Below, one piece after another: positions 16,923-39,679 of a stretch of DNA of 42,207 bases. The notes beneath the pieces are model-generated. The model searched no databases. It had not been told where the DNA came from and saw only the letters and a list, made by a program, of their open reading frames with translations. Location: assembly GCA_963754945.1 (NCBI GenBank), contig CAVWIG010000022.1, positions 1 to 42,207 on the forward strand, read 5' to 3'. The DNA comes from Methanotrichaceae archaeon. GTDB taxonomy: Archaea; Halobacteriota; Methanosarcinia; Methanotrichales; Methanotrichaceae. A program made the position numbers and the translations under genes. Within the stretch, counting starts at the first letter, position 1. Every line of letters begins with the position of its first letter.

Positions 16923-17771
16923 ATGACTGCTATTTTTTGGGCGGATGAAGCCGATTATCTTTACTCACAAGGCGAATATGATGAAGCTATCGGGTTCTAT
17001 GATAGAGCTATTGAGGCCGCCCCCAAAAACGCGGAATTATGGAACAGCAGAGGCCTGGCTTTATGTCATCTCGGCAGATATGAAGATGCCATTGAGTCCT
17101 TTTGCAGGACCCTCGAAATTGATCCGGAACACGTCGATGCCCGGAATAATAGAGGAGTTGTTCTCTATAAGCAGAATAAATATGCTGAGGCCATCGGATA
17201 CTTTGATGAAATTATCGAAATGAATCCCGAATACGTCAAAGCCTGGTACAACAAAGGTGTAGTCTTAGGCAAGATTGGGAATTATCTGGAGGCGATCAAT
17301 CATTACGACAGGACCCTCGAGCTAAATCCATGTGGAGCCAAAGTCTGGAGCAACAAGGGAGCCGCTTTGGGCTGCCTGGGCAGATATAACGAGGCAGTAT
17401 TGTGTTTCGACAAGGCCATCGAACTCGATTCCAAGAACGCCGAAGCTTGGAACAACAAAGGAGCTGCTTTGGGCAAGCTTGGCCGATACGATGAGGCAAT
17501 GGTGTGCTTTGACCGGTCAATAGAAAGAGATCCTATGCAACCCGAAGTATGGTACAACAAAGGCGAAGCGCTGAGGCGTCAGGATAAATATGCTGAGGCT
17601 ATCCAGCAGTTTGATAAAGCCATCGAAATAGATCCTGCATATAGCAAAGCATGGATCAGCTTGGGTCTTGCCCTCAAGGCTCTCGGCAGAGACGCAGAGG
17701 CCGATGTTGCCTTTGCCGAGGCTGCTGCAAAAGAGAGTGATTACCTAGCGGTTCATGATCATTTTGAGTAA
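16923..17771 (+). CDS. Tetratricopeptide repeat protein
   Basis: About 8 34-aa repeats of WxNKGxxLxxLGxYxEAxxxFDKA; GAGGTG RBS. Confidence 0.95.
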   Translation: MTAIFWADEADYLYSQGEYDEAIGFYDRAIEAAPKNAELWNSRGLALCHLGRYEDAIESFCRTLEIDPEHVDARNNRGVVLYKQNKYAEAIGYFDEIIEMNPEYVKAWYNKGVVLGKIGNYLEAINHYDRTLELNPCGAKVWSNKGAALGCLGRYNEAVLCFDKAIELDSKNAEAWNNKGAALGKLGRYDEAMVCFDRSIERDPMQPEVWYNKGEALRRQDKYAEAIQQFDKAIEIDPAYSKAWISLGLALKALGRDAEADVAFAEAAAKESDYLAVHDHFE

Positions 17772-18130
17772 GAGTCCTGGAGCATCCTCTCGATATGGAC
17801 TTTTAGCGGAGGAAGCTCTGTCGTCAGGACGTTCCATGCAATCTTCCAGTTCACCTGAAAGTAGTGATGGATCAGTTTGTCTCTCATTGCAGCCATCATC
17901 TTCCACTCGATCTCAGGATGTTCTTTCTTTAGTTCAGGAGAGATGTTTTTGGTGGCTTCGCCAATGATCTCAAGGCTTCTGACGACGCCTCGCTGCAATA
18001 GCTCGTCCTCCAAGAGGTCTTCGAACCCCAGGCTCTCGACATGAGTGGTCAGGAAAGTTATCTCGTCCAGGATATGCCCCAGAAAGACGGAATCGTCTTT
18101 AATCAGCCCACACCACCTCTTTCTCCACAT
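17759..18130 (-). CDS. hepT: HepT-like (DUF86, HEPN) ribonuclease toxin; true start probably near 18105
   Basis: RSLEIIGEA and MRDKLIHHYF (Rx4HxY). Confidence 0.9.
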   Translation of the reverse strand: MWRKRWCGLIKDDSVFLGHILDEITFLTTHVESLGFEDLLEDELLQRGVVRSLEIIGEATKNISPELKKEHPEIEWKMMAAMRDKLIHHYFQVNWKIAWNVLTTELPPLKVHIERMLQDSYSK

Positions 18131-18380
18131 AGGGCCTGATTCTATGGCTGATTCCTTCCGGAGTTAATAGGTCAACCCTCCGGCCAAAGAGGTCCTCCAA
18201 GAAGAAAGCAAGGTTCATGAAGTTCCTGAACGTCGGGTCTTCGAACTCCACCAGTATGTCGATGTCGCTATCTTTCGTCTCTTCTCCTCTGACAAAAGAG
18301 CCGAAGAGGCCTATGCGACGCACAGCGAAGCGGTCCTTGATCTCTTGCTCATGGCTTCTAAGGATCTCGATGACTTTCAA
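18099..18380 (-). CDS. mntA: MNT minimal nucleotidyltransferase antitoxin
   Basis: GLFGSFVRGEETKDSDIDILV (GSx10DxD); directly upstream of HepT. Confidence 0.92.
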   Translation of the reverse strand: MKVIEILRSHEQEIKDRFAVRRIGLFGSFVRGEETKDSDIDILVEFEDPTFRNFMNLAFFLEDLFGRRVDLLTPEGISHRIRPYVEKEVVWAD

Positions 18381-18594
18381 AAGAACACCTCGGTGAGTAT
18401 GCCAATGCTCGTAACTCCCTTAATCAAATGATTTCTATAGATTTATCTATTTCCCAAAGCTATTGAATTCTACTAGATACAACCGATATCTTGTCAATCC
18501 TTTCTTGCTAAACAGCGGGGAAAATTATAAAATATCTAAATATACCTACTCACTTTCATTTCATCCTGGGTGCAACTTTTCCCACGTACATCAT

Positions 18595-18795
18595 CTACTC
18601 TTCCTTCGGTTTGGAGCCGCCTCGACCAACTTTTACGTACATGCCCCGATCTTGAAGGGTAGGCTCAAGGATTATTATCAAAAGCTCTTTATTCTTGAGC
18701 GTCTTATCGAGATAAATCTTACTTTGGGCATCGGTTCTCTTGTAGGCGATACCCAGGGGAACTCTTTCAACACCGTTATCATCAATTATCTTCAT
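18595..18795 (-). CDS. Small protein, possibly AbrB/DUF2080-like
   Basis: SKIYLDKTLKNKELLIIIL pattern; GAGTGGT upstream; AGCTA repeats in the promoter at 18847-18878. Confidence 0.4.
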   Translation of the reverse strand: MKIIDDNGVERVPLGIAYKRTDAQSKIYLDKTLKNKELLIIILEPTLQDRGMYVKVGRGGSKPKEE

Positions 18796-19322
18796 TTAAC
18801 CACTCTAAGCTCCTAGTGGTTCTTGTGGCTATTTATGCCATTTTAAGCTAAAAAAGCTTATATAGCTATATTAGCTATTAAGACTTAAAAGGCTGTGATT
18901 GACGATCAGGATTCTCGCAGCCTACCTCGCAAGAGAGGCGATACGCAAATGGAGACTGCAATTATTCGAACCTGCGCGGTAGTGCGTAGGATGCGTACCT
19001 TGGAAGTACAAACATATCCGAACATAGCCGTGACTGTTTCAGCCGTAATCGCATCTGTTAGATTCCAATTGAGGAGGGTACTGAATGGATATTGATTCTG
19101 TCTCGGCGTCGCCAAGCGAAGTTAAACAGGCTATCGTTCAACACATCGAAGAGATAGACCGTGCCGTGATAGCCCTGAATGTAACTAGGATGGTGGAACT
19201 GGCCAAGCTAGTGCTGATCGAGAAGATTGAGGAGATCTAAGCATAAATTTTGAAGTGCGCTGCCGGTTCGATGGCCAGGGATCGCAGCCCTGGAGCGATT
19301 GAAAAGGAGCTGGAGAGCTGAG

Positions 19323-19850
19323 ATGGGCTTCCTCGACTCAATCCTCGGAAAGACCAGGCTGCCCGAGGCAAAGACAGGTAAGCTCTTTGCCATTTCAACC
19401 GCTGCCATAACCCATGAGGCAAACCTGGGCCTCGTGCCTGATGGCGCGGCAGCGGTGTGCATCAAGCCCCATGATTCGTCCAGGTACGAAGCCGCCCGTG
19501 CTGAAGTCGAGGATCTCCTCAAACACAGCTTCAAGGAGACCGGAACCTGGTACTGTATCCAGAAGGACGAGTTCAACTACATCTGGGTAGTATTGAGGAC
19601 AAGGACTTCGGCGACCTAGTCACGAACATCCAGATGGTAAGCCAGATCCTGATGGAGCAGGGATTCGGCATCCAACTTTTGGCCGCTGTCTACCGCTTCA
19701 AGGGCGAGAATATCGTCTACTGGATCCGTGCCTAGCGGCAACCAGCAGAGGAACACGTCCTTAGAGTTCAGGCTGAAGTCGGTGATGGGAAGAGAGCTGT
19801 CAATCAAAAAGGATGAAGCTAAGTTGTATCCTATGTGAGGGATGCCACTG
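19323..19850 (+). pseudogene. PspA-associated protein PspAB-like, with frameshift and internal deletion
   Basis: MGFLDSILGKTRL...KLFAISTA...DEFNYIWVVL, then after a shift EDKDFGDLVTNIQMVSQ..GFGIQLLAAVYRF..YWI. Confidence 0.7.
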
Positions 19851-20053
19851 TAGTTATGGGCTGAAGACCGCGGATTGAGACATTATGATCATCGACGGTA
19901 AGTAGTGATTTTGATGATCTCTCGGTTTCTGCCTCGGATTTCCATGAGATGGTTGCTTTCTCGCCCCTATCCACACGAAGCAAACGCTTTACTATATTCT
20001 TGATTTGTAGATTCATCCCAAGGCATAATCTCTTGCCCATCCTTAACGATATT

Positions 20054-20162
20054 ATACGTTCAGATACGATAAACTACGTTTAACTACGTTTTAATACATA
20101 TTGAAGGGTTTGGTAGCCATAAAAAGTATTTTATATACGTCTGACGTAGTCTATCTACGTTT
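20054..20162. promoter_or_regulatory. TACGT(T) repeat cluster, candidate AbrB operator
   Basis: TATACGTT, ATACGAT, CTACGTTT x2, ATACGT, ACGTAG and CTACGTTT upstream of the AbrB gene. Confidence 0.55.
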
Positions 20163-20167
20163 AAAAT

Positions 20168-20347
20168 ATGGGACAGATTCACACCGCCACGGTTAAGGTA
20201 ATAAAAGATGGTCGAATAACCATACCTCTTGGGATAAGAGAACTTGAAGATATTAAAATAGGGGATTATTTAAAAATAACAGTTGAAAAGCTCGATGGAC
20301 ACAAAGAAACACGGGTCAACAGAAAAAAAACTGCCGGAACAAAATAA
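20168..20347 (+). CDS. AbrB/MazE/SpoVT family DNA-binding protein, 59 aa, not in the ORF track
   Basis: TVKVIKDGRITIPLGIRELEDIKIGDYLKITVEK. Confidence 0.85.
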   Translation: MGQIHTATVKVIKDGRITIPLGIRELEDIKIGDYLKITVEKLDGHKETRVNRKKTAGTK

Positions 20348-20424
20348 ATAGTAGTTACGCTACTTATGGCTCTCAATGTGCCATAGATACGAAACCGCCA
20401 GAGAAACGAGAAACGAGTGAAAAC

Positions 20425-20715
20425 ATGGGCGGTCTCACAATCAGCGATCCAAATTATTATAAGTGGGACGATAGATATATCCAGTTTACGGACCATGCAA
20501 AAATAGAATGCGCCTTATTCAAAATTGGTGTACATGAGATAATAGATATGCTTCATAACCAAATTAAATGTCCTAAAACCAAAAAACATAATAAATCAGA
20601 CAAGGAGATATGTAGTAAAAAGAACAAAAAAATATTCCGCATAATTCTCTTTAAGGATTATTGCATTGATGTGGGAGAAATCTGTTGGTGCGTGAGACAT
20701 GTCAAGCCCAAGTAA
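20425..20715 (+). CDS. DUF4258/BrnT-RelE-like putative RNase toxin
   Basis: IQFTDHAK..C...I..HEI.DML N-terminus and C-terminal beta strands. Confidence 0.55.
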   Translation: MGGLTISDPNYYKWDDRYIQFTDHAKIECALFKIGVHEIIDMLHNQIKCPKTKKHNKSDKEICSKKNKKIFRIILFKDYCIDVGEICWCVRHVKPK

Positions 20716-21361
20716 AGTGATAAGTCATCGTCATGTGTGGGAGAAGGAAGAGCATAAGCTAGACGACGGCTTTTCTTATTACTATATGATTTGTAAAATA
20801 TGCCATGAAGTTCGTTTCCCTGCATTTCAATTACAACAAATTCAGGACTATTCCAAAAAACATCTATTCTTATTTGTAGAGGATTGGGTAATCCTTCTTC
20901 TCTATGCTGGACATAAGAGGAATAAATATATCGCTGGCATCACGATATATCAAAAAATGCTATTTCTAATTTACATGGAGTTTGTACCAAGGTATAAAAT
21001 TCCCTCAGAAAATCCGGGATTTTATGGATATTTGTATGGGCCATTTTCCGCTAGAATAGATGCTGCAATTAACTTATATATAGATCAAGGTTATATTATA
21101 ACTGAGGGATTGAAATCTTCTTCAGCAGAACATTTTATAATTACCGTAAAAGGCAAGAAGAGAGGAAAGGAAATTTTTAATAAACTCTCAAAAGAGCAAC
21201 AAGAGGCCCTTATAGTTTTTAGGGAAAAATGGGATAAATTAGGAACCAAAGCAATATGTAAAGAAATTTATGGGAATGAGAACTATAGAGATTATATTAA
21301 AGAGTCGATAATACTGTCTCACCTATTTCCAGGAAGGAAACTATACAGGAGGCGAGGATAG
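20699..21361 (+). CDS. YgiT/MqsA-like Zn-finger remnant fused to a SocA/Panacea (DUF4065)-like domain
   Basis: CKICHEVRF; GITIYQKMLFL and FYGYLYGPFS..I motifs. Confidence 0.7.
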   Translation: MSSPSKVISHRHVWEKEEHKLDDGFSYYYMICKICHEVRFPAFQLQQIQDYSKKHLFLFVEDWVILLLYAGHKRNKYIAGITIYQKMLFLIYMEFVPRYKIPSENPGFYGYLYGPFSARIDAAINLYIDQGYIITEGLKSSSAEHFIITVKGKKRGKEIFNKLSKEQQEALIVFREKWDKLGTKAICKEIYGNENYRDYIKESIILSHLFPGRKLYRRRG

Positions 21362-21362
21362 C

Positions 21363-22520
21363 GTGAAATCGGTTAAAGTGAGAGTTCTAAACAAAGACAA
21401 CCGATATGGCGGTCGAAATATTCATGTAACCTTGGGGCCGTCCAGTTTCGACACACCAAATAGAGTTGCGACGCAAAAGGACTATTATTCGGTTAGTTCG
21501 CTTCCTCACGATACATCGATTGGTAATCCAATTTCCGAATTCGTTACTGCCTTTGATAACCCTTCATTGAACGCTTTTCTTACAGGCAATGGTTCTCTCT
21601 CAAGGAGGCATAATCGAATAGTTACGCAGGCCCAAGAGATGATGCGCTATTTTCCAATTATATCAACTATTCAGCTTCCTAGTAATAAAAGGGTTCCACA
21701 AGATCAATTATGGTTTTTTGATAAAGTCCAAATCGGCCCGTGTAATATAATCTCTATACCGCCATTTGATTATAATGATATATCTATTTATAAAGTGGAA
21801 ATTATAAATTATAGCGAGATAGCCAAATCTAGGGGGCAAGAAGCAATGCCAATCCTCCAATTATCAACTGAAATAGAAACGTTCAAACGTGAATTCGCTA
21901 TTTTGAGAGAATTAAATAATGATAATGGCTTGTGTAATATAATAGGATTTTCGTATGCGAATCCATTTAATTATTCAAAACAGTTTTATGAACTTTATAA
22001 GAATAGAGAAGAGGCCATTTGGTTCCATTCTTTTGGAGTACCCAGGACACCTAGGGGAAAGAATAAGCTCTCAGTAGCACACATTCATGAATTGCAGAAT
22101 TGGGGATTAGACACCTTTTCTCCAGAGGTAAGACATATTTCGCCCAAAGCACTAGTTTATCTAAAGAAGAAAGCGTTAACTACTGACCCGAAAGACCTAC
22201 AGTGCAGACGATTTGACTCCCAGACACTCGGGATTTTCAAAGAGCCGGATTGGATCAAGAAGTACGGTGATAAAATCAACTGCAATTGCCCTGTATGTGA
22301 AAAGAACAAAAGTCTTTCTTCATTTAAAGATGCATACATATACGAAAAAGACGGGTCATTCAATCCTGCCCTTTTACGCGATGCTGATAAAGTACATGAA
22401 CTGACATCAGGATCTAAAGAGTTTGCTATATCAAGAGATGCAATAAAATCTGATGACTTACCAGGATACTATAGAGAAAAAGAGTTCACGAAAGGCCGTG
22501 TTAGTCCTCCAATTGAGTGA
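21363..22520 (+). CDS. Divergent tRNA-guanine transglycosylase (TGT/DpdA)-fold protein
   Basis: FDTP N-terminal motif, WFHSFGV, GLDTFS and CNCPVC...H zinc site in TGT order. Confidence 0.65.
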   Translation: MKSVKVRVLNKDNRYGGRNIHVTLGPSSFDTPNRVATQKDYYSVSSLPHDTSIGNPISEFVTAFDNPSLNAFLTGNGSLSRRHNRIVTQAQEMMRYFPIISTIQLPSNKRVPQDQLWFFDKVQIGPCNIISIPPFDYNDISIYKVEIINYSEIAKSRGQEAMPILQLSTEIETFKREFAILRELNNDNGLCNIIGFSYANPFNYSKQFYELYKNREEAIWFHSFGVPRTPRGKNKLSVAHIHELQNWGLDTFSPEVRHISPKALVYLKKKALTTDPKDLQCRRFDSQTLGIFKEPDWIKKYGDKINCNCPVCEKNKSLSSFKDAYIYEKDGSFNPALLRDADKVHELTSGSKEFAISRDAIKSDDLPGYYREKEFTKGRVSPPIE

Positions 22521-22526
22521 GAATTT

Positions 22527-22644
22527 TGCTGTGTTGAATAACTCTGCTAAAACCGATATGCATCGTGGCATATCAGTAATGATAGGTAAAATGAGCAAAA
22601 TCGACATCTGCCAGCATCATGGCCTTGAGTTACGCAACACAGCA
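22527..22644. mobile_element. MITE copy 1 (118 bp)
   Basis: TIRs TGCTGTGTTGAATAACTC and GAGTTACGCAACACAGCA; 8-bp TSD GAGAATTT at 22519-22526 and 22645-22652. Confidence 0.92.
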
Positions 22645-22746
22645 GAGAATTTTATAAAGTATAATTGGAATTTTAGCACATATCCTGCTGCAACACCCTG
22701 CGCAAACCCCCATATGCAATAGAACCATTCAGAATAGTTCCTGTGA

Positions 22747-23010
22747 TCATCTTTTTATTATCGTTACAGAGTGTCTTATTGTACCAGAATATCCGCCCAA
22801 ATCTATTACCAAATGCCAACGTCCTGTTGAGGGCGCAGGAATGTTTATTGGGGAGACATCATAATGACCGCCAACATACTGGAATCTCCTGCCGTTAAGG
22901 TAATCTTGATAATTACTTCCATCAAGCAGCATCACATTTGCTTGGATATCAATTTCCACATGCACTATATCACCTTGGTCTAAATAATAATCGGCATGCA
23001 AATGTTCCAT
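22747..23010 (-). CDS. DUF1883 domain protein
   Basis: GDIVHVEI..QANVMLLD..NY..Y..G..F.Y.GG....SP..I..P..G.WHLVIDLGG. Confidence 0.85.
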   Translation of the reverse strand: MEHLHADYYLDQGDIVHVEIDIQANVMLLDGSNYQDYLNGRRFQYVGGHYDVSPINIPAPSTGRWHLVIDLGGYSGTIRHSVTIIKR

Positions 23011-23354
23011 ATACCGCCTCCAATTTTTTGAACTTCTTGGCTAACATCGCTTTTTCCATTATTTATATATTACTACTGCAACGTGAAAGTATTAAACGGT
23101 TGGACTTTCAGAATAATGGTGTACTTTATAATTAACTGGGAGAATTAAGTTTTGGAATTGGAATAAAATTTGTTTCCTATAACTTTCATGAACCGATCAT
23201 ATTTTGATCTTTGTATCATCAGAACGAGGCAGGTATTGCTGCCCGAGAAGTTAGGTCGTGAACTTGACAAAAAACTAAATGATATAATAGCACTGCTTAA
23301 GTTGTAGCACTTATAAGTTTCAATATAAAATATTAAGGAATAATAAATAGTTCC

Positions 23355-24114
23355 TTACGCGTACATCTTCGCATAAGGTCTCTTCGATTTCGGCGCCAGC
23401 CTGATGAACTCTCCTTTGAGGATCTCTTCCTTGCTTAGGCCAAGCTCCGGGAAGTGGTCCACGAACTCTCCAATGTTCTTATCCAGGACTGCGATGTCCT
23501 CTTCCTTCGGCTCGGAGATATCCACCTGGCCTGCCACCTGGAGCTTGTCTACCTTGCCCCTGATGTAGATCACGCCGCCGTGCATCCCTGTGCCGATGAA
23601 GGTCTGGCTGTGGGGCTTGTCGCCGAGTCCCAGGAGAATGACTATGCCGCCTGCCATGTACTCGCCGAGGAAGTCCTGGGTAGTGCCGCCTATGACAAGA
23701 ACGGGCTTCTTGTCCAGGTACTCCTTCATGTGCAGCGCCGTCCGGTAGCCGGTATTGTCCCTGATGAAGATCTTTCCTCCACGCATGGACATTCCGAGAA
23801 CGTCTCCCGCCCGGCCTTCCACCACGATCTCGCCATCGTCCATGGTGTTGCCGACGCCGTCCTGAACGTTGCCGTGAACCCTGACGCGGTGGCCGGACAT
23901 GAAGGCACCCAGGTCGCTTCCCGGAGTCCCGACGATCTCGATGTCCAGCTTATGCTTGTCGCCGTTCTTGGAGTATAGCCTGGTTCCGATATACCTCTGG
24001 CCGCAGACGTTCTTCAGGACGAACTTTTCAGTGCCGTCAAGCATAAGGGCTCTCAGCCGTTCGTTCAGCTCCTTGGTGGGAATGCCCGTTGCATCTATCT
24101 CGACTCGTCTCCAT
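23355..24114 (-). CDS. gltB: Glutamate synthase domain 3 (GXGXG, FwdC-like); the RBS-linked ATG at 24114 is out of frame by one base
   Basis: GQRYIG, GNVQDGVGNTMDDG and DFLGEYMAGG. Confidence 0.9.
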
Positions 24115-27090: not shown

Positions 27091-28427
27091 CTACAGAATA
27101 GGTAGGTACCTGTCCAGCTCCCACTGGGTGACCTGAATCCTGTAGTTGTCCCATTCCTTCTTCTTGTTGGCGATGAAGGCGTCGAAGGTGTGGTCGCCCA
27201 GAGCCTCGCGAACCAGCTTGCTGCCCTCTGTGATCTGGACGGCGTCGTTCAGGCTTCCGGGCAGGGATCCAATGCCTGCGGCCTTCCTCTCCTCCTCGGT
27301 CATGTGGAAGATGTTCTGCTCCTGGGGCTCAGGCAACTCGTACTTGTTGGCGATTCCTGCAAGTCCAGCAGCAAGCATCACTGAGAAGGCCAGGTACGGG
27401 TTTGCTCCTGGGTCCGGGCTGCGGTACTCTATCCTTGTGGCTGCCTCCTTTCCGGGCTTGTACATTGGCACCCTGACCAGGGCAGACCTATTCCTTCTGG
27501 CCCAGCAGATGTAGCACGGTGCCTCGTATCCCGGAACGAGCCGCTTGTAGGAGTTGACCCACTGATCAGTGACGGATGTGATCTCAGGCGCATGCTTTAG
27601 CAGGCCTGCGACGTAGTACTTGGCCTCGTCCGATAGGTGGTACTCATCTCCGGCATTGAAGAAGACATTCTTCTTACCCTGGAATAGGGACTGATGGACA
27701 GTGCATTCCTGTGCCGTTCTGGCCGAAGATTGGCTTGGGCATGAATGTTGCGTGGTAGCCGTACCGGTGGGCGATCTCCTTGACTGTGATCCTGAAGGTA
27801 ATCAGCTGGTCTGCCATTTCAGAGCGTCGGCATGTACCTCATATCGATCTCATGCTGTGAAGGTGCTACCTCGTGATGGCTGAACTCGACATCGATTCCC
27901 ATAGCGTCCAGCGCAAGGACCGTGTCGCGGCGGAGGTCGGATGCCGCATCCAGGGTGGTCAGATCGAAGTAGCCGCCCTTATCCAGTATCTCTGTGCCCT
28001 GTTCGTTCTTGAAGTAGAAGAACTCCAGCTCTGGGCCTACATTGAATGTATAGCCTTTATCCTTGAGCCGTGCGAGATTCTTCTTTAGAACCTGCCTCGG
28101 GTCGCCCTCGTACGGAGATCCATCGGGATTCTGTATGTCTCCAAACAGCCTGGCCACGGCGTTCTCCTGTTGTCTCCAGGGAATGATCTTGAAAGTGGTC
28201 GGGTCAGGCTTGATGACCATGTCCGACTCCTCGATCTTCTGGAAGCCGCTGATGGAGGATCCGTCGAATCCCATGCCCTCGCTGAAGGCTCCGTCGAGCT
28301 CGTTGGTGTTGATGGCGAAGCTCTTGGGGAATCCCAGGATATCTGTGAACCATAGTCTCACAAATCGTACATTATGCTTATCTATTGCTGCAAAGACATC
28401 ATCTTTTGTCTTTATTTGTTCAACCAT
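27091..28427 (-). CDS. glnA: Glutamine synthetase type I, interrupted by about 3 indels at 27700-27835 (pseudogene or assembly error)
   Basis: [53 protein letters not shown] and RIEYRSPD distributed over frames. Confidence 0.95.
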
Positions 28428-28455
28428 ATTTCTATTCCTCCTTGTACCTCCAATC

Positions 28456-28506
28456 AATCCGGTCCGGATTTATAGGTATTTGAGAGCCGTTCATAATAAT
28501 TATGAA
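28456..28506. promoter_or_regulatory. Two perfect palindromes upstream of glnA
   Basis: AATCCGG-T-CCGGATT (28456-28470) and TTCATAAT-A-ATTATGAA (28490-28506). Confidence 0.45.
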
Positions 28507-38852: not shown

Positions 38853-39544
38853 GTGAAACGGCGGCGGCGCACCCGCGCAGCAAGCTGCGGGGCATCCAAG
38901 GCGCCGCCGCATGAAAGTGGAACCAGGTTAGGCTGATCCAAACCTAAGTTGAATATGCATGCCCTTTATCCCCGATGCAAGCAGTGGGGCGTGTTAGTGT
39001 CGTTTGTAATCAGCTGAAATCCAACAACTTCATTTGTTTATGCCCTTCCTTTTCTTCAGGGCTTCCCTGTGATTAAACATAATTGCGTATTGTGTCCGCC
39101 ATCACGCCATCCCCTACCGTTCCGATGTATCCTCCGTCACTCCAAAATTCGCCGCCCCAAAGCTGTTTCCTTACTTCGGGGAATTTCTTAAAAAACGCTC
39201 TCGCTGTTATGCTTTTTACTATTTGCATCACTCTTGAAGGCGAATATCTCGGCGCAGCTCCAACAAAAATATGAACATGGTCTCCATCGGTTCCTATGGC
39301 ATCAAAATCGAACCAGTATCTTTCACCGATTTCAGAACAAATAGATTTGATATAATTGATACGATCATTATCTAGAAGCAGCTTTTTTCTATATTTTAAG
39401 CTGAAAACCATGTGATATCGAATTTTATAAGTACAATGGCTTGCATTTCTTACCTCAATCATCAATATGCACGATATGCAATCTTCCTTAAGTCGGTTTC
39501 CTGACCATCCCAACCGCAGCAAGCTGCGGGGTATTCATTTTAAA
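38853..39544 (-). mobile_element. IS200/IS605 element, tnpA only
   Basis: Subterminal hairpins CGCAGCAAGCTGCG at both ends; inserted 3' of TTAT on the minus strand without TSD; right end finishes TTCAC. Confidence 0.88.
39010..39462 (-). pseudogene. tnpA: IS200 Y1 transposase TnpA with a premature stop
   Basis: YHMVFSLKYR, DHVH (HUH), FWSDG; RNYV*SQG stop at 39073-39075 removes the Q of YxxxQ. Confidence 0.88.
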
Positions 39545-39561
39545 ATAATATCGGTAATATT

Positions 39562-39679
39562 TGCTGTGTTGCGTAACTCAAGGCCATGATGCTGGCAGAT
39601 GTCGATTTTGCTCATTTTACATATCATTACTGATATGCCACGATGCATATCGGTTTTAGCAGAGTTATTCAACACAGCA
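39562..39679. mobile_element. MITE copy 2 (118 bp), inverted relative to copy 1
   Basis: Reverse complement of 22527-22644 with one mismatch seen; 8-bp TSD GTAATATT at 39554-39561 and 39680-39687. Confidence 0.92.

Follow-up and report, generated by a model that had tools for sequence, protein, structure and literature searches.

The 42,207-nucleotide window analysed here (GenBank assembly GCA_963754945.1, contig CAVWIG010000022.1, positions 1 to 42,207, forward strand, from a Methanotrichaceae archaeon) carries four same-strand genes between 20168 and 22520, designated p1 to p4. The last three, p2-p3-p4 (20425-22520), form a conserved unit that ends in a protein of apparent tRNA-guanine transglycosylase (TGT) ancestry in which the canonical catalytic aspartates have been lost. 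The genes and features of the locus are:

20168..20347, + strand: p1, an AbrB/MazE-like open reading frame (ORF) of 59 amino acids (aa); an adjoining gene outside the conserved module

20425..20715, + strand: p2, 96 aa, a DUF4258-like, putative BECR-fold toxin (ORF call)

20699..21361, + strand: p3, 220 aa, an N-terminal zinc finger followed by a Panacea/DarG-C-terminal-like core with a winged helix

20726..20806, + strand: zinc finger of p3, HRH...CKICH (alignment A4)

20867..21358, + strand: core domain of p3 (alignment A5)

21363..22520, + strand: p4, 385 aa with a GTG start, a TGT-superfamily protein without canonical catalytic aspartates

21390..21464, + strand: N-terminal hairpin of p4, NKDN..GGR...TPNR, collinear with the TGT N-terminus (..gR.G...eTP)

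22020..22046, + strand: WFHSFGVPR of p4, the H.FG strand (motif position)

22104..22121, + strand: GLDTFS of p4, aligned to the TGT motif GxDxFD, with Ser253 at the nucleophile position

22281..22397, + strand: zinc subdomain of p4, CNCPVC...H (CxCxxC...H), with C307, C309, C312 and H345

22527..22644, no strand assigned: a multi-copy, 118-bp repeat resembling a miniature inverted-repeat transposable element (MITE), with 18-nucleotide (nt) terminal inverted repeats, directly 3' of the p4 stop

The p2 and p3 frames share 17 nt, 1 nt lies between p3 and p4, and a gap of 77 nt separates p1 from p2. The G+C content of p1-p4 is 0.34-0.38 and that of the flanks 0.45-0.57; the low-GC stretch as a whole spans ~19900 to 23350. 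All four products are basic, with isoelectric points of 9.0-9.8 (9.2 for p2). A preliminary description made from the sequence had noted four low-GC genes on one strand, the last three overlapping or 1 nt apart, and the ORF coordinates and base composition bear this out.

Conservation of the arrangement was assessed by tblastn of p1-p4 against 29 independent loci recovered with p4 as bait, 4 of them from species genomes and 25 from metagenomes. By construction, p4 is present in 29/29. It is accompanied by p3 in 27, the remaining two contigs stopping inside p4, and by p2 in 24, the remaining five stopping inside p3 or p4; where the contig reaches far enough, p3 is found in 27/27 loci and p2 in 24/24. 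The gene order is always p2-p3-p4, with identical overlaps across loci, and the linkage proposed earlier for the last three genes therefore stands. Pairwise distance matrices of the three proteins correlate at r = 0.92-0.95 (20 loci), which is the expectation for block co-inheritance and nothing beyond it.

The AbrB gene, which had been counted as part of the same operon, does not share this history. It is found in 0/29 related loci; a paralog of 72% identity lies on contig C33 of this genome, where the next gene is an unrelated one of 320 aa; and the leader AATGATAAGTACATCAGATATCC, common to several other loci upstream of p2, has been replaced in the window. For these reasons p2-p3-p4 is a genuine unit and p1 a local neighbour, acquired locally. 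As a family member, p1 falls just below two cut-offs, with 23.4 bits on PF04014 (cut-off 24.7) and 27.3 bits on TIGR01439 (cut-off 28.3).

TGT enzymes exchange bases in tRNA and DNA, and the Dpd, BREX-related and type IV CBASS defence systems have lately been found to include them. The relationship of p4 to this superfamily is visible at the level of profiles. Against Pfam, NCBIfam and PADLOC, p4 gives no family at E<=1 beyond noise, and its 51 close homologs are nearly all without a name. A wide profile search over 1.84 billion representatives expands the p4 family to 260 representative clusters (50% identity) at E<=1e-3; no large fusions are present among the best 150 of the 260, whose lengths range from 44 to 466 aa. 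Atlas look-ups return archaeal clusters without a name (0.95) and a viral cluster (0.82-0.83) of which 22-30% of the members carry TGT, and PDB sequence and profile searches with p4 and the alignments A2, A3 and A4 give chance-level matches alone.

Profile-profile comparison was made with hhalign, whose E-values refer to single pairwise comparisons. The query was A2, an alignment of 72 p4-family sequences, and the TGT references were drawn from 30 genomes of the phylum as well as from the genome to which the window belongs. Against canonical TGTs, A2 scores 95.6% (E 1.3e-8) over 61 columns that comprise CxCxxC...H and the next helix, the strongest part of the TGT match. A second collinear segment at the N-terminus, q7-44/t4-37, scores 31.7 in local hhalign, the highest of 10 shuffles being 15.0, and two weak collinear segments lie between the N-terminal and zinc segments. 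Against ten TGT paralogs of ~345 aa, which match canonical TGT at E 2.9e-51, A2 scores 94.5% (E 7.7e-8) over 207 columns (q129-380), with 8 column shuffles at <=0.4%. One atypical TGT paralog aligns over 116 columns at 27% identity, with GiDT.S paired to GVDTFD. The 207-column support arises only against these closer paralogs, and the 328-column TGT alignment is a product of the global, maximum-accuracy (MAC) mode; under Viterbi, the robust segment shared with canonical TGTs comprises only ~60 columns. Single-profile searches point the same way: the NCBIfam archaeal TgtA model weakly matches 3/4 p4-likes, and 4/62 full-length distant relatives match PF01702 in the C-terminal region, P0254 alone above the cut-off (26.5 versus 26.3 bits). 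Taken together, the profile-profile comparisons make it very probable that p4 belongs to the TGT superfamily, and its predicted fold is a (beta/alpha)8 barrel.

The window's own genome holds other members of the superfamily. ArcTGT and ArcS-like genes lie on contig C23, and a 412-aa TGT on contig C17 (259099-260250, L030), with 418 bits on PF01702, falls among short TGTs of bacterial type from a few other archaea of the phylum. Two groups of atypical TGT paralogs were also encountered: genes of ~413 aa and ~665 aa that, in eight genomes, share a strand and are separated by ~0.5 kb (L140, G030:C1:1320500-1327000), and the ~345-aa family (L150-L170). Both groups keep GxDxFD, and they bridged TGT to p4.

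The residue pattern of p4 separates a retained scaffold from a lost active site. Cys307, Cys309, Cys312, His345 and Asp250 are invariant in 26 close relatives; in the 72 sequences of the wide family, the Cys zinc ligands are kept in 53-55, H345 in 72 and D250 in 70. R18 and P32 are likewise invariant in all 72. The positions kept family-wide are R18, T31, P32, Q123, P133, D250, H345, E353 and Y369, most of which correspond to TGT invariant positions outside the catalytic motifs; DSGxxQ is not conserved. At position 253, where TGTs carry the nucleophile, the 72 sequences have S in 45, T in 8, A in 8, G in 4, C in 3, V in 2 and other residues in 2, with Asp in none. GLDTFS is here aligned with GVDTFD of one TGT paralog and with GvDsFDSS of the ~345-aa paralogs. 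Ser131 falls under the base-binding Asp of TlDvP (motif LDE/TlDvP), and this position is S in 39 and T in 20 of 72, never Asp. Neither DSG nor DSGG occurs in p4, and the alignment of the DSGG region, which in TGT supplies the general acid, is of low confidence.

Because both the base-binding Asp and the Asp nucleophile are lost, p4 appears unable to exchange bases by the canonical covalent mechanism. Such a residue pattern marks either a pseudo-enzyme or an enzyme whose active site is wholly new; that position 253 is varied and never Asp favours the pseudo-enzyme over a new nucleophile. The preliminary description of p4 as a TGT-like protein with the zinc site and H.FG, with Ser in place of the nucleophile Asp and no clear DSGG, agrees with the profile comparisons and alignments. 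Its further suggestion of a 'non-canonical base-excising toxin' is weakened by the same alignments, in which the nucleophile is absent throughout and the base-binding position is mostly S or T.

The protein encoded just upstream, p3, appears to combine two modules. Of its 65 homologs, JGI lists 3 as 'uncharacterized protein YwgA' and nearly all others are without a name, and the window protein matches no Pfam family at E<=1. In the N-terminal zinc finger, H12, C32 and C35 are invariant and H36 is kept in at least 90% of sequences (A4). The relative in locus L064 has CHC...CPKC in place of H..C..CH, and the segment is missing from p3-likes that have no p2-type partner gene (A5, 20 diverse p3-likes). 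The same alignment defines the invariant residues of the core: L67, G80, K86, F89, G114, P115, G152, Y191 and S203.

Several lines of similarity connect this core with antitoxin domains. SocA_Panacea (PF13274) matches 9/24 members of A4, with a best E of 8.6e-4, and the winged-helix family DUF4364 matches 18/24; on PF13274 the relatives in L064 and L065 reach 18.5 and 17.0 bits, the cut-off being 25.7. Direct comparison of p3 with Panacea proteins by hhalign yields 65.5% (E 5.8e-5) over K..LF...GP.S, with shuffles at <=0.4%. The best PDB match of the core is 7yk3_B, 'DNA ADP-ribosyl glycohydrolase' (189 aa, a DarG chain), at E 0.0073 over F.P.YGPYS, and the C-terminal region of NCBIfam antitoxin_DarG is matched by 4/4 p3-likes (E 1.1e-4 to 0.022). 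In DarTG, the DarG C-terminal domain keeps DarT inhibited, according to the title of a reference in PMC11825919. Among PADLOC models, p3-likes match DarG, PDC-M19A, the HsdS C-terminus and LmuC; the window protein matches PDC-M19A at 6.9e-6, and p3 also matches two PHROGs of no assigned function. Its centre resembles HTH_45 and MarR-type PDB chains at E 0.07-0.26.

Together, these matches lend weak to moderate support to p3 as a zinc finger joined to a Panacea/DarG-C-terminal-like core, and the zinc finger and Panacea-like core of the preliminary description persist at that level. The DarG C-terminal and Panacea matches would place the core in a class of toxin-binding domains. PMC8832971 requires of Panacea that it keep a place within 100 nt of a toxin gene in two- or three-gene loci; here p3 overlaps p2, a putative toxin gene, and lies 1 nt from p4 in an arrangement kept in 27 loci.

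In p2, Cys49, 63, 80 and 87 are shared without exception by 17 relatives. Neither the window protein nor any of these members (0/17) has a Pfam match at E<=1, and the PF14076 model finds 0 matches in the whole own genome. When compared by hhalign with archaeal DUF4258 proteins, one of them from L011, in a trimmed alignment, p2 scores 86% (E 4.9e-6) over 45 columns, with 8 shuffles at <=1.5%; a relative in L064 matches PF14076 directly at E 0.022. A score of 99.8% with the untrimmed template was rejected as a sparse-column artefact, as shuffles scored equally. The 86% profile match gives moderate support to p2 as DUF4258-like, the assignment that had been proposed at the outset. PMC11980606 describes DUF4258 as an uncharacterised BECR toxin family with 17 DUF4258-MqsA fusions, whose target is not known; a preprint (bioRxiv 10.64898/2026.08.28.747851) assigns it to the colicin-like branch.

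More distant loci show which parts of the module travel together. A p3-like gene adjoins the p4-like gene in 11/12 wider-family loci, and the third gene changes along with the domain composition of p3:

L063, L064: third gene p2-like; p3 with zinc finger

L065-L068: third gene a zinc-ribbon protein of ~160 aa (157-163); p3 without zinc finger

L070-L073: third gene of PIN/DUF3368 type; p3 with a C-terminal UPF0175 extension and without zinc finger

Among L070-L073, Pfam gives the PIN/DUF3368 identity for 2/3 proteins tested and the PADLOC model PDC-S70 matches 2/2 tested, and the UPF0175 module is C-terminal on p3 in 3/4 PIN-linked loci (Pfam E 9e-12 to 3e-4). The centre of the L065-L068 zinc-ribbon protein scores 4.7% and 14.7% against p2/DUF4258, a weak lead. 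In L069, an intact p4-like gene with all key residues kept stands alone in a complete genome, with no ORF upstream. The comparison suggests a constant pair of p3 core and p4 that is combined with different toxin/antitoxin modules. Such modular relatives make two earlier ideas for the module more attractive: that p4 may be a sensor, and that p3 may be a dual-domain antitoxin.

In L065-L068, the first gene encodes an N-terminal C.(Y/F)CGN...C..C(G/N)R zinc ribbon. This ribbon and the loss of the finger from p3 may represent a domain swap between neighbours.

The module is patchily distributed. Matches to the p4-family profile occur in 11/401 genomes across the phylum, the window's genome counted, and in 0/12 of the same family; the p3 and p4 relatives with a name derive from assemblies of Methanoperedens, Methanothrix and 'Halobacteriota'. 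In two congener genomes, the alignment to the window breaks off at ~18206 and resumes at 23319. Both lack the stretch in between and carry other genes in its place, which makes 18206-23319 a variable spot. Insertion sites vary, the flanks differing between loci; no direct repeats were found flanking the module as an insertion mark. Relatives of p4 were found in none of the IMG/VR viral contigs, PLSDB plasmids and GenBank phages.

The flanks were scanned with Pfam for 76 of 116 ORFs of >=70 aa from 21 loci, near-duplicate loci and some distal ORFs being left out. Defence or mobile neighbours are present in 7/21 loci, the remainder being housekeeping genes or without a Pfam match. The neighbours include PglZ; HsdR with a YgjP-like protein; an Eco57I/MmeI-type methylase; DUF4258+DUF2283; UPF0175; an integrase with a RadC-like protein; and DUF4365, so that type I and IIG restriction-modification are both represented. 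HsdS genes also occur (L065, L068), as do a PIN gene in L067 and a similar ORF in L068. In L011, a canonical DUF4258+DUF2283 pair adjoins the module.

The surroundings within the window contain further features. A Pfam scan of the 32 window ORFs identifies, among others, archaeal-type glutamate synthase parts, F420-dehydrogenase-type genes, aIF-1A and a RIO kinase near the module. No Rfam family, and hence no riboswitch, was found in 18000-24000, and a bacterial promoter scan is uninformative in an archaeal host. About 2 kb upstream (17759-18380, - strand), a HepT-like RNase (123 aa) overlaps an MNT nucleotidyltransferase (93 aa), a classic toxin-antitoxin pair that is reduced to a 135-bp remnant in one congener. 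A partial gene for PspA-associated protein B lies at 19273-19846; its 106-aa ORF covers positions 1-94 of the 189-position model. It sits within a ~0.6-kb stretch repeated on contig C17 (86% identity), and one congener has the full-length protein of 187 aa. A DUF1883 protein of 87 aa (22747-23010, - strand; E 4.6e-26) is encoded convergently with p4 in the same low-GC stretch, and the flank scan found no DUF1883 gene beside the module in other loci. The glutamine synthetase at 27091-28457 (- strand) appears to be split into two ORFs ~350 bp apart, Gln-synt_N with the first third of the C domain and the last third; a frameshift, a pseudogene or an assembly error could account for the split.

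The 118-bp repeat behind p4 has inverted arms at 22527-22544 and 22627-22644 and a DNA fold with z = -2.7. At least 12 further copies of 83-100% identity are found on other contigs of the genome, and one more lies in the window at 39562-39679 (- strand), where it adjoins an IS200-like transposase gene (39073-39522, - strand). The element is probably a MITE-like derivative of the IS200-like family. Many related contigs stop <200 bp from the module, and such repeats may be behind that.

Our tentative preference, held at somewhat short of an even chance, is that p2-p3-p4 is a mobile archaeal toxin-antitoxin-type cassette, probably serving defence or addiction, in which p3 is the hub and p4 a partner that binds nucleic acid but is not catalytic. 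In the proposed mechanism, p2 would be a small basic, DUF4258-like (BECR-fold) toxin of RNase type. p3 would act as a two-module neutraliser or adaptor: the zinc finger would go with p2, and the core with p4. p4, which retains barrel segments, the hairpin and the zinc subdomain, would bind nucleic acid without catalysis, most likely tRNA. Seated on the p3 core, it could set the timing at which p3 releases the RNase, a chaperone-like role of the kind seen in toxin-antitoxin-chaperone systems. The argument for a sensor or gate draws on three observations: the catalytic loss; the constant p3-core/p4 pair beside interchangeable toxins; and the p4-like that stands alone in L069. The contacts between the proteins, the toxicity of p2, the binding of nucleic acid by p4 and the role in defence are all predicted from the sequences.

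This proposal might extend beyond the present locus. It is conceivable, though rather unlikely, that a pseudo-TGT family has been co-opted in archaea to serve plug-and-play toxin-antitoxin systems as their constant subunit for sensing or targeting. p4 would then bind tRNA, the natural TGT ligand, or nucleic acid made by a virus and, via the p3 core, would gate whichever tRNase-type toxin is plugged in, be it a colicin-like BECR protein of the p2 kind or a PIN protein.

Several observations weigh against the cassette with a non-catalytic p4. The 62 invariant columns in 26 p4 sequences may also mean a new enzymatic activity. Like the window's own p2 and p3, p4 has no match at a curated threshold; its fold and all contacts derive from sequence, with the mapping of DSGG at low confidence. 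The link between p2 and DUF4258 comprises 45 columns at 86%, and falls to 0.5% in a single-protein comparison. For p3, the profile match to Panacea reaches only 65.5%, and the MqsA/YgiT-type zinc-finger model matches 0/5 N-terminal segments in NCBIfam, and none in Pfam. The PIN-linked p4-likes match the profile over the N-terminal half only (E 1.6e-7 to 4.9e-15), which makes their membership less sure. Finally, L074 holds p4-like and p3-like genes alone, for which the simplest reading is that p4 is a toxin.

This last point belongs to the main rival, a possible though doubtful arrangement of two toxins with one antitoxin. Here p4 would itself arrest growth, for instance through the clamping or sequestration of tRNA or DNA, and p3 would neutralise p4 with its core and p2 with its finger, making the operon a toxin-antitoxin-toxin one. 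The p3-core/p4 pair is indeed the constant part of the family, and L074 reduces the system to exactly this pair. However, the apparently intact p4-like gene of L069 stands alone, and the canonical catalytic residues are gone from p4. p3 is also the slowest-evolving of the three proteins (mean pairwise distance 0.32, versus 0.36 for p4 and 0.385 for p2); for an antitoxin to evolve slower than its toxin is unusual. Precedent for the two-toxin arrangement comes from Panacea (PMC8832971) and from the DarG C-terminal domain, both direct toxin binders. Gene order also speaks for it: p3 before p4 follows the common antitoxin-then-toxin order, and p2 before p3 the toxin-then-antitoxin order of BrnT and gp49; DUF4258 pairs themselves are antitoxin-first according to PMC11980606.

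An enzymatic p4 is unlikely. It would excise or exchange bases on tRNA or DNA from a new active site, as a toxin or as a DpdA-like DNA modifier. Its high conservation, which includes the family-specific R34, R228 and H242, would be explained in this way, and TGT homologs reported as catalytic do occur in conflict systems, namely DpdA and BREX-related systems (PMC12839542) and Cap10 (bioRxiv 2025.04.06.647259). Cap10, however, keeps its catalytic Asp D248 and the nucleobase-coordinating residues, as the aligned canonical TGTs keep theirs, whereas p4 has lost them: its family accepts A, G and V at position 253 and has S/T at position 131. Pfam scans of 32 window and 76 flanking ORFs reveal no preQ0-synthesis, QueC-like, DpdB/C or CD-NTase family. 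p4 and 25 relatives are without a PADLOC match, bar two at E 0.0015-0.007 that are regarded as chance.

It is distinctly improbable that the module is no conflict system at all, with p4 a housekeeping-type accessory protein that binds or modifies RNA or DNA, p3 a winged-helix regulator and p2 a small cofactor. The DUF4364, HTH_45 and MarR-type similarities of the p3 centre would suit such a regulator, and L069 carries a p4-like gene alone. Against this stand the patchy distribution, the varying insertion sites and the low GC; the replacement of the third gene by PIN toxins with a fused UPF0175 antitoxin module; and the resemblance of p3 to the DarG C-terminus, Panacea and PDC-M19A. Least credible is a four-gene operon with p1 as regulator or antitoxin, which its shared strand, its position 77 nt upstream, its similar GC of 0.37 and the frequency of AbrB/MazE-type proteins among antitoxins (p1 matches phrog_4681 'antitoxin' at 9.6e-5) might suggest, but which the related loci, the missing leader and the paralog already refute as a general feature, although p1 could have a local role.

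The p4 family is sizeable (260 clusters), mostly archaeal, without a Pfam entry and not described in the literature searched. It constitutes a TGT-like branch in which catalytic residues appear to be lost and which is tied to a Panacea/DarG-like domain and to interchangeable putative RNase toxins. If the cassette with a non-catalytic p4 is the correct reading, it would add a new toxin or sensor fold to the repertoire of Panacea-type antitoxins and be one of few archaeal-specific toxin-antitoxin or defence architectures. It would also provide a second natural example of a non-catalytic TGT. A tripartite logic built on a dead RNA-modification enzyme would be new, and analogous to that of toxin-antitoxin-chaperone systems. 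The cassette gives a concrete handle on the putative DUF4258 toxins and, being only ~2.1 kb, is directly testable.

Full-text literature searches found no description of the module or of the p2/p3/p4 combination, and no mention of PDC-M19. As the preliminary description had allowed, PADLOC assigns no named system. The one candidate-system match of the window module is to PDC-M19: the window p3 and 8/8 p3-likes match PDC-M19A (E 6.9e-6 to 6.7e-14) over the first ~130-175 of 294 positions. The model is matched in part, and p4 and p2 match no PADLOC model.

With the TGT superfamily (bacterial TGT, ArcTGT/ArcS, DpdA, Cap10; also QTRT2, the non-catalytic subunit of eukaryotes), p4 shares the zinc subdomain, GxDxF, H.FG and a collinear N-terminal hairpin. 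It differs in the replacement of the Asp nucleophile and the base-binding Asp, and in having no DSGG and no PUA or other C-terminal domains; at the level of the locus, deazaguanine-pathway neighbours are absent and the partner is Panacea-like. In contrast to Dpd, no DpdB/DpdC or preQ0-synthesis Pfam families accompany p4 among the 32 window and 76 flanking ORFs, and the Asp of DpdA is lost. Cap10 of type IV CBASS (bioRxiv 2025.04.06.647259) belongs to an operon with a CD-NTase and a QueC-like Cap9 and uses a catalytic Asp/His pair; none of these partners appears among the same 32 and 76 ORFs, and the Asp is absent from p4.

As in DUF4258 (PF14076) pairs with MqsA/YgiT or DUF2283, a small basic toxin-like gene precedes that of a zinc-finger protein. 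p2 nevertheless lies below all thresholds and has four invariant Cys, and the p3 finger does not match MqsA/YgiT. DarTG resembles the module in that DarG provides the best solved-structure match of the p3 core and that DarG models match the C-terminal part of p3-likes; the module has no macrodomain, NADAR domain or DarT, and the similarity is weak, over ~60-150 residues.

Panacea (DUF4065, PanA) is similar in kind, an antitoxin-type domain that, according to PMC8832971, pairs with many unrelated toxins in two- or three-gene loci, and p3 shares its K..LF...GP.S motif. The differences are that no p3 member reaches the Pfam cut-off, that the partner is TGT-fold, that p3 has an extra zinc finger and that a third gene is conserved. 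The main text of PMC8832971 contains 0 mentions of TGT, transglycosylase, DUF4258 or zinc; its supplements may list such a cluster.

Toxin-antitoxin-chaperone systems are built from unrelated proteins, and their SecB-like chaperone is absent from the module; for one of them, an abortive-infection role is mentioned in PMC11980606. By analogy, the likeness would lie in their organisation, in which a constant third protein and a constant extension of the antitoxin are combined with interchangeable toxin-antitoxin pairs.

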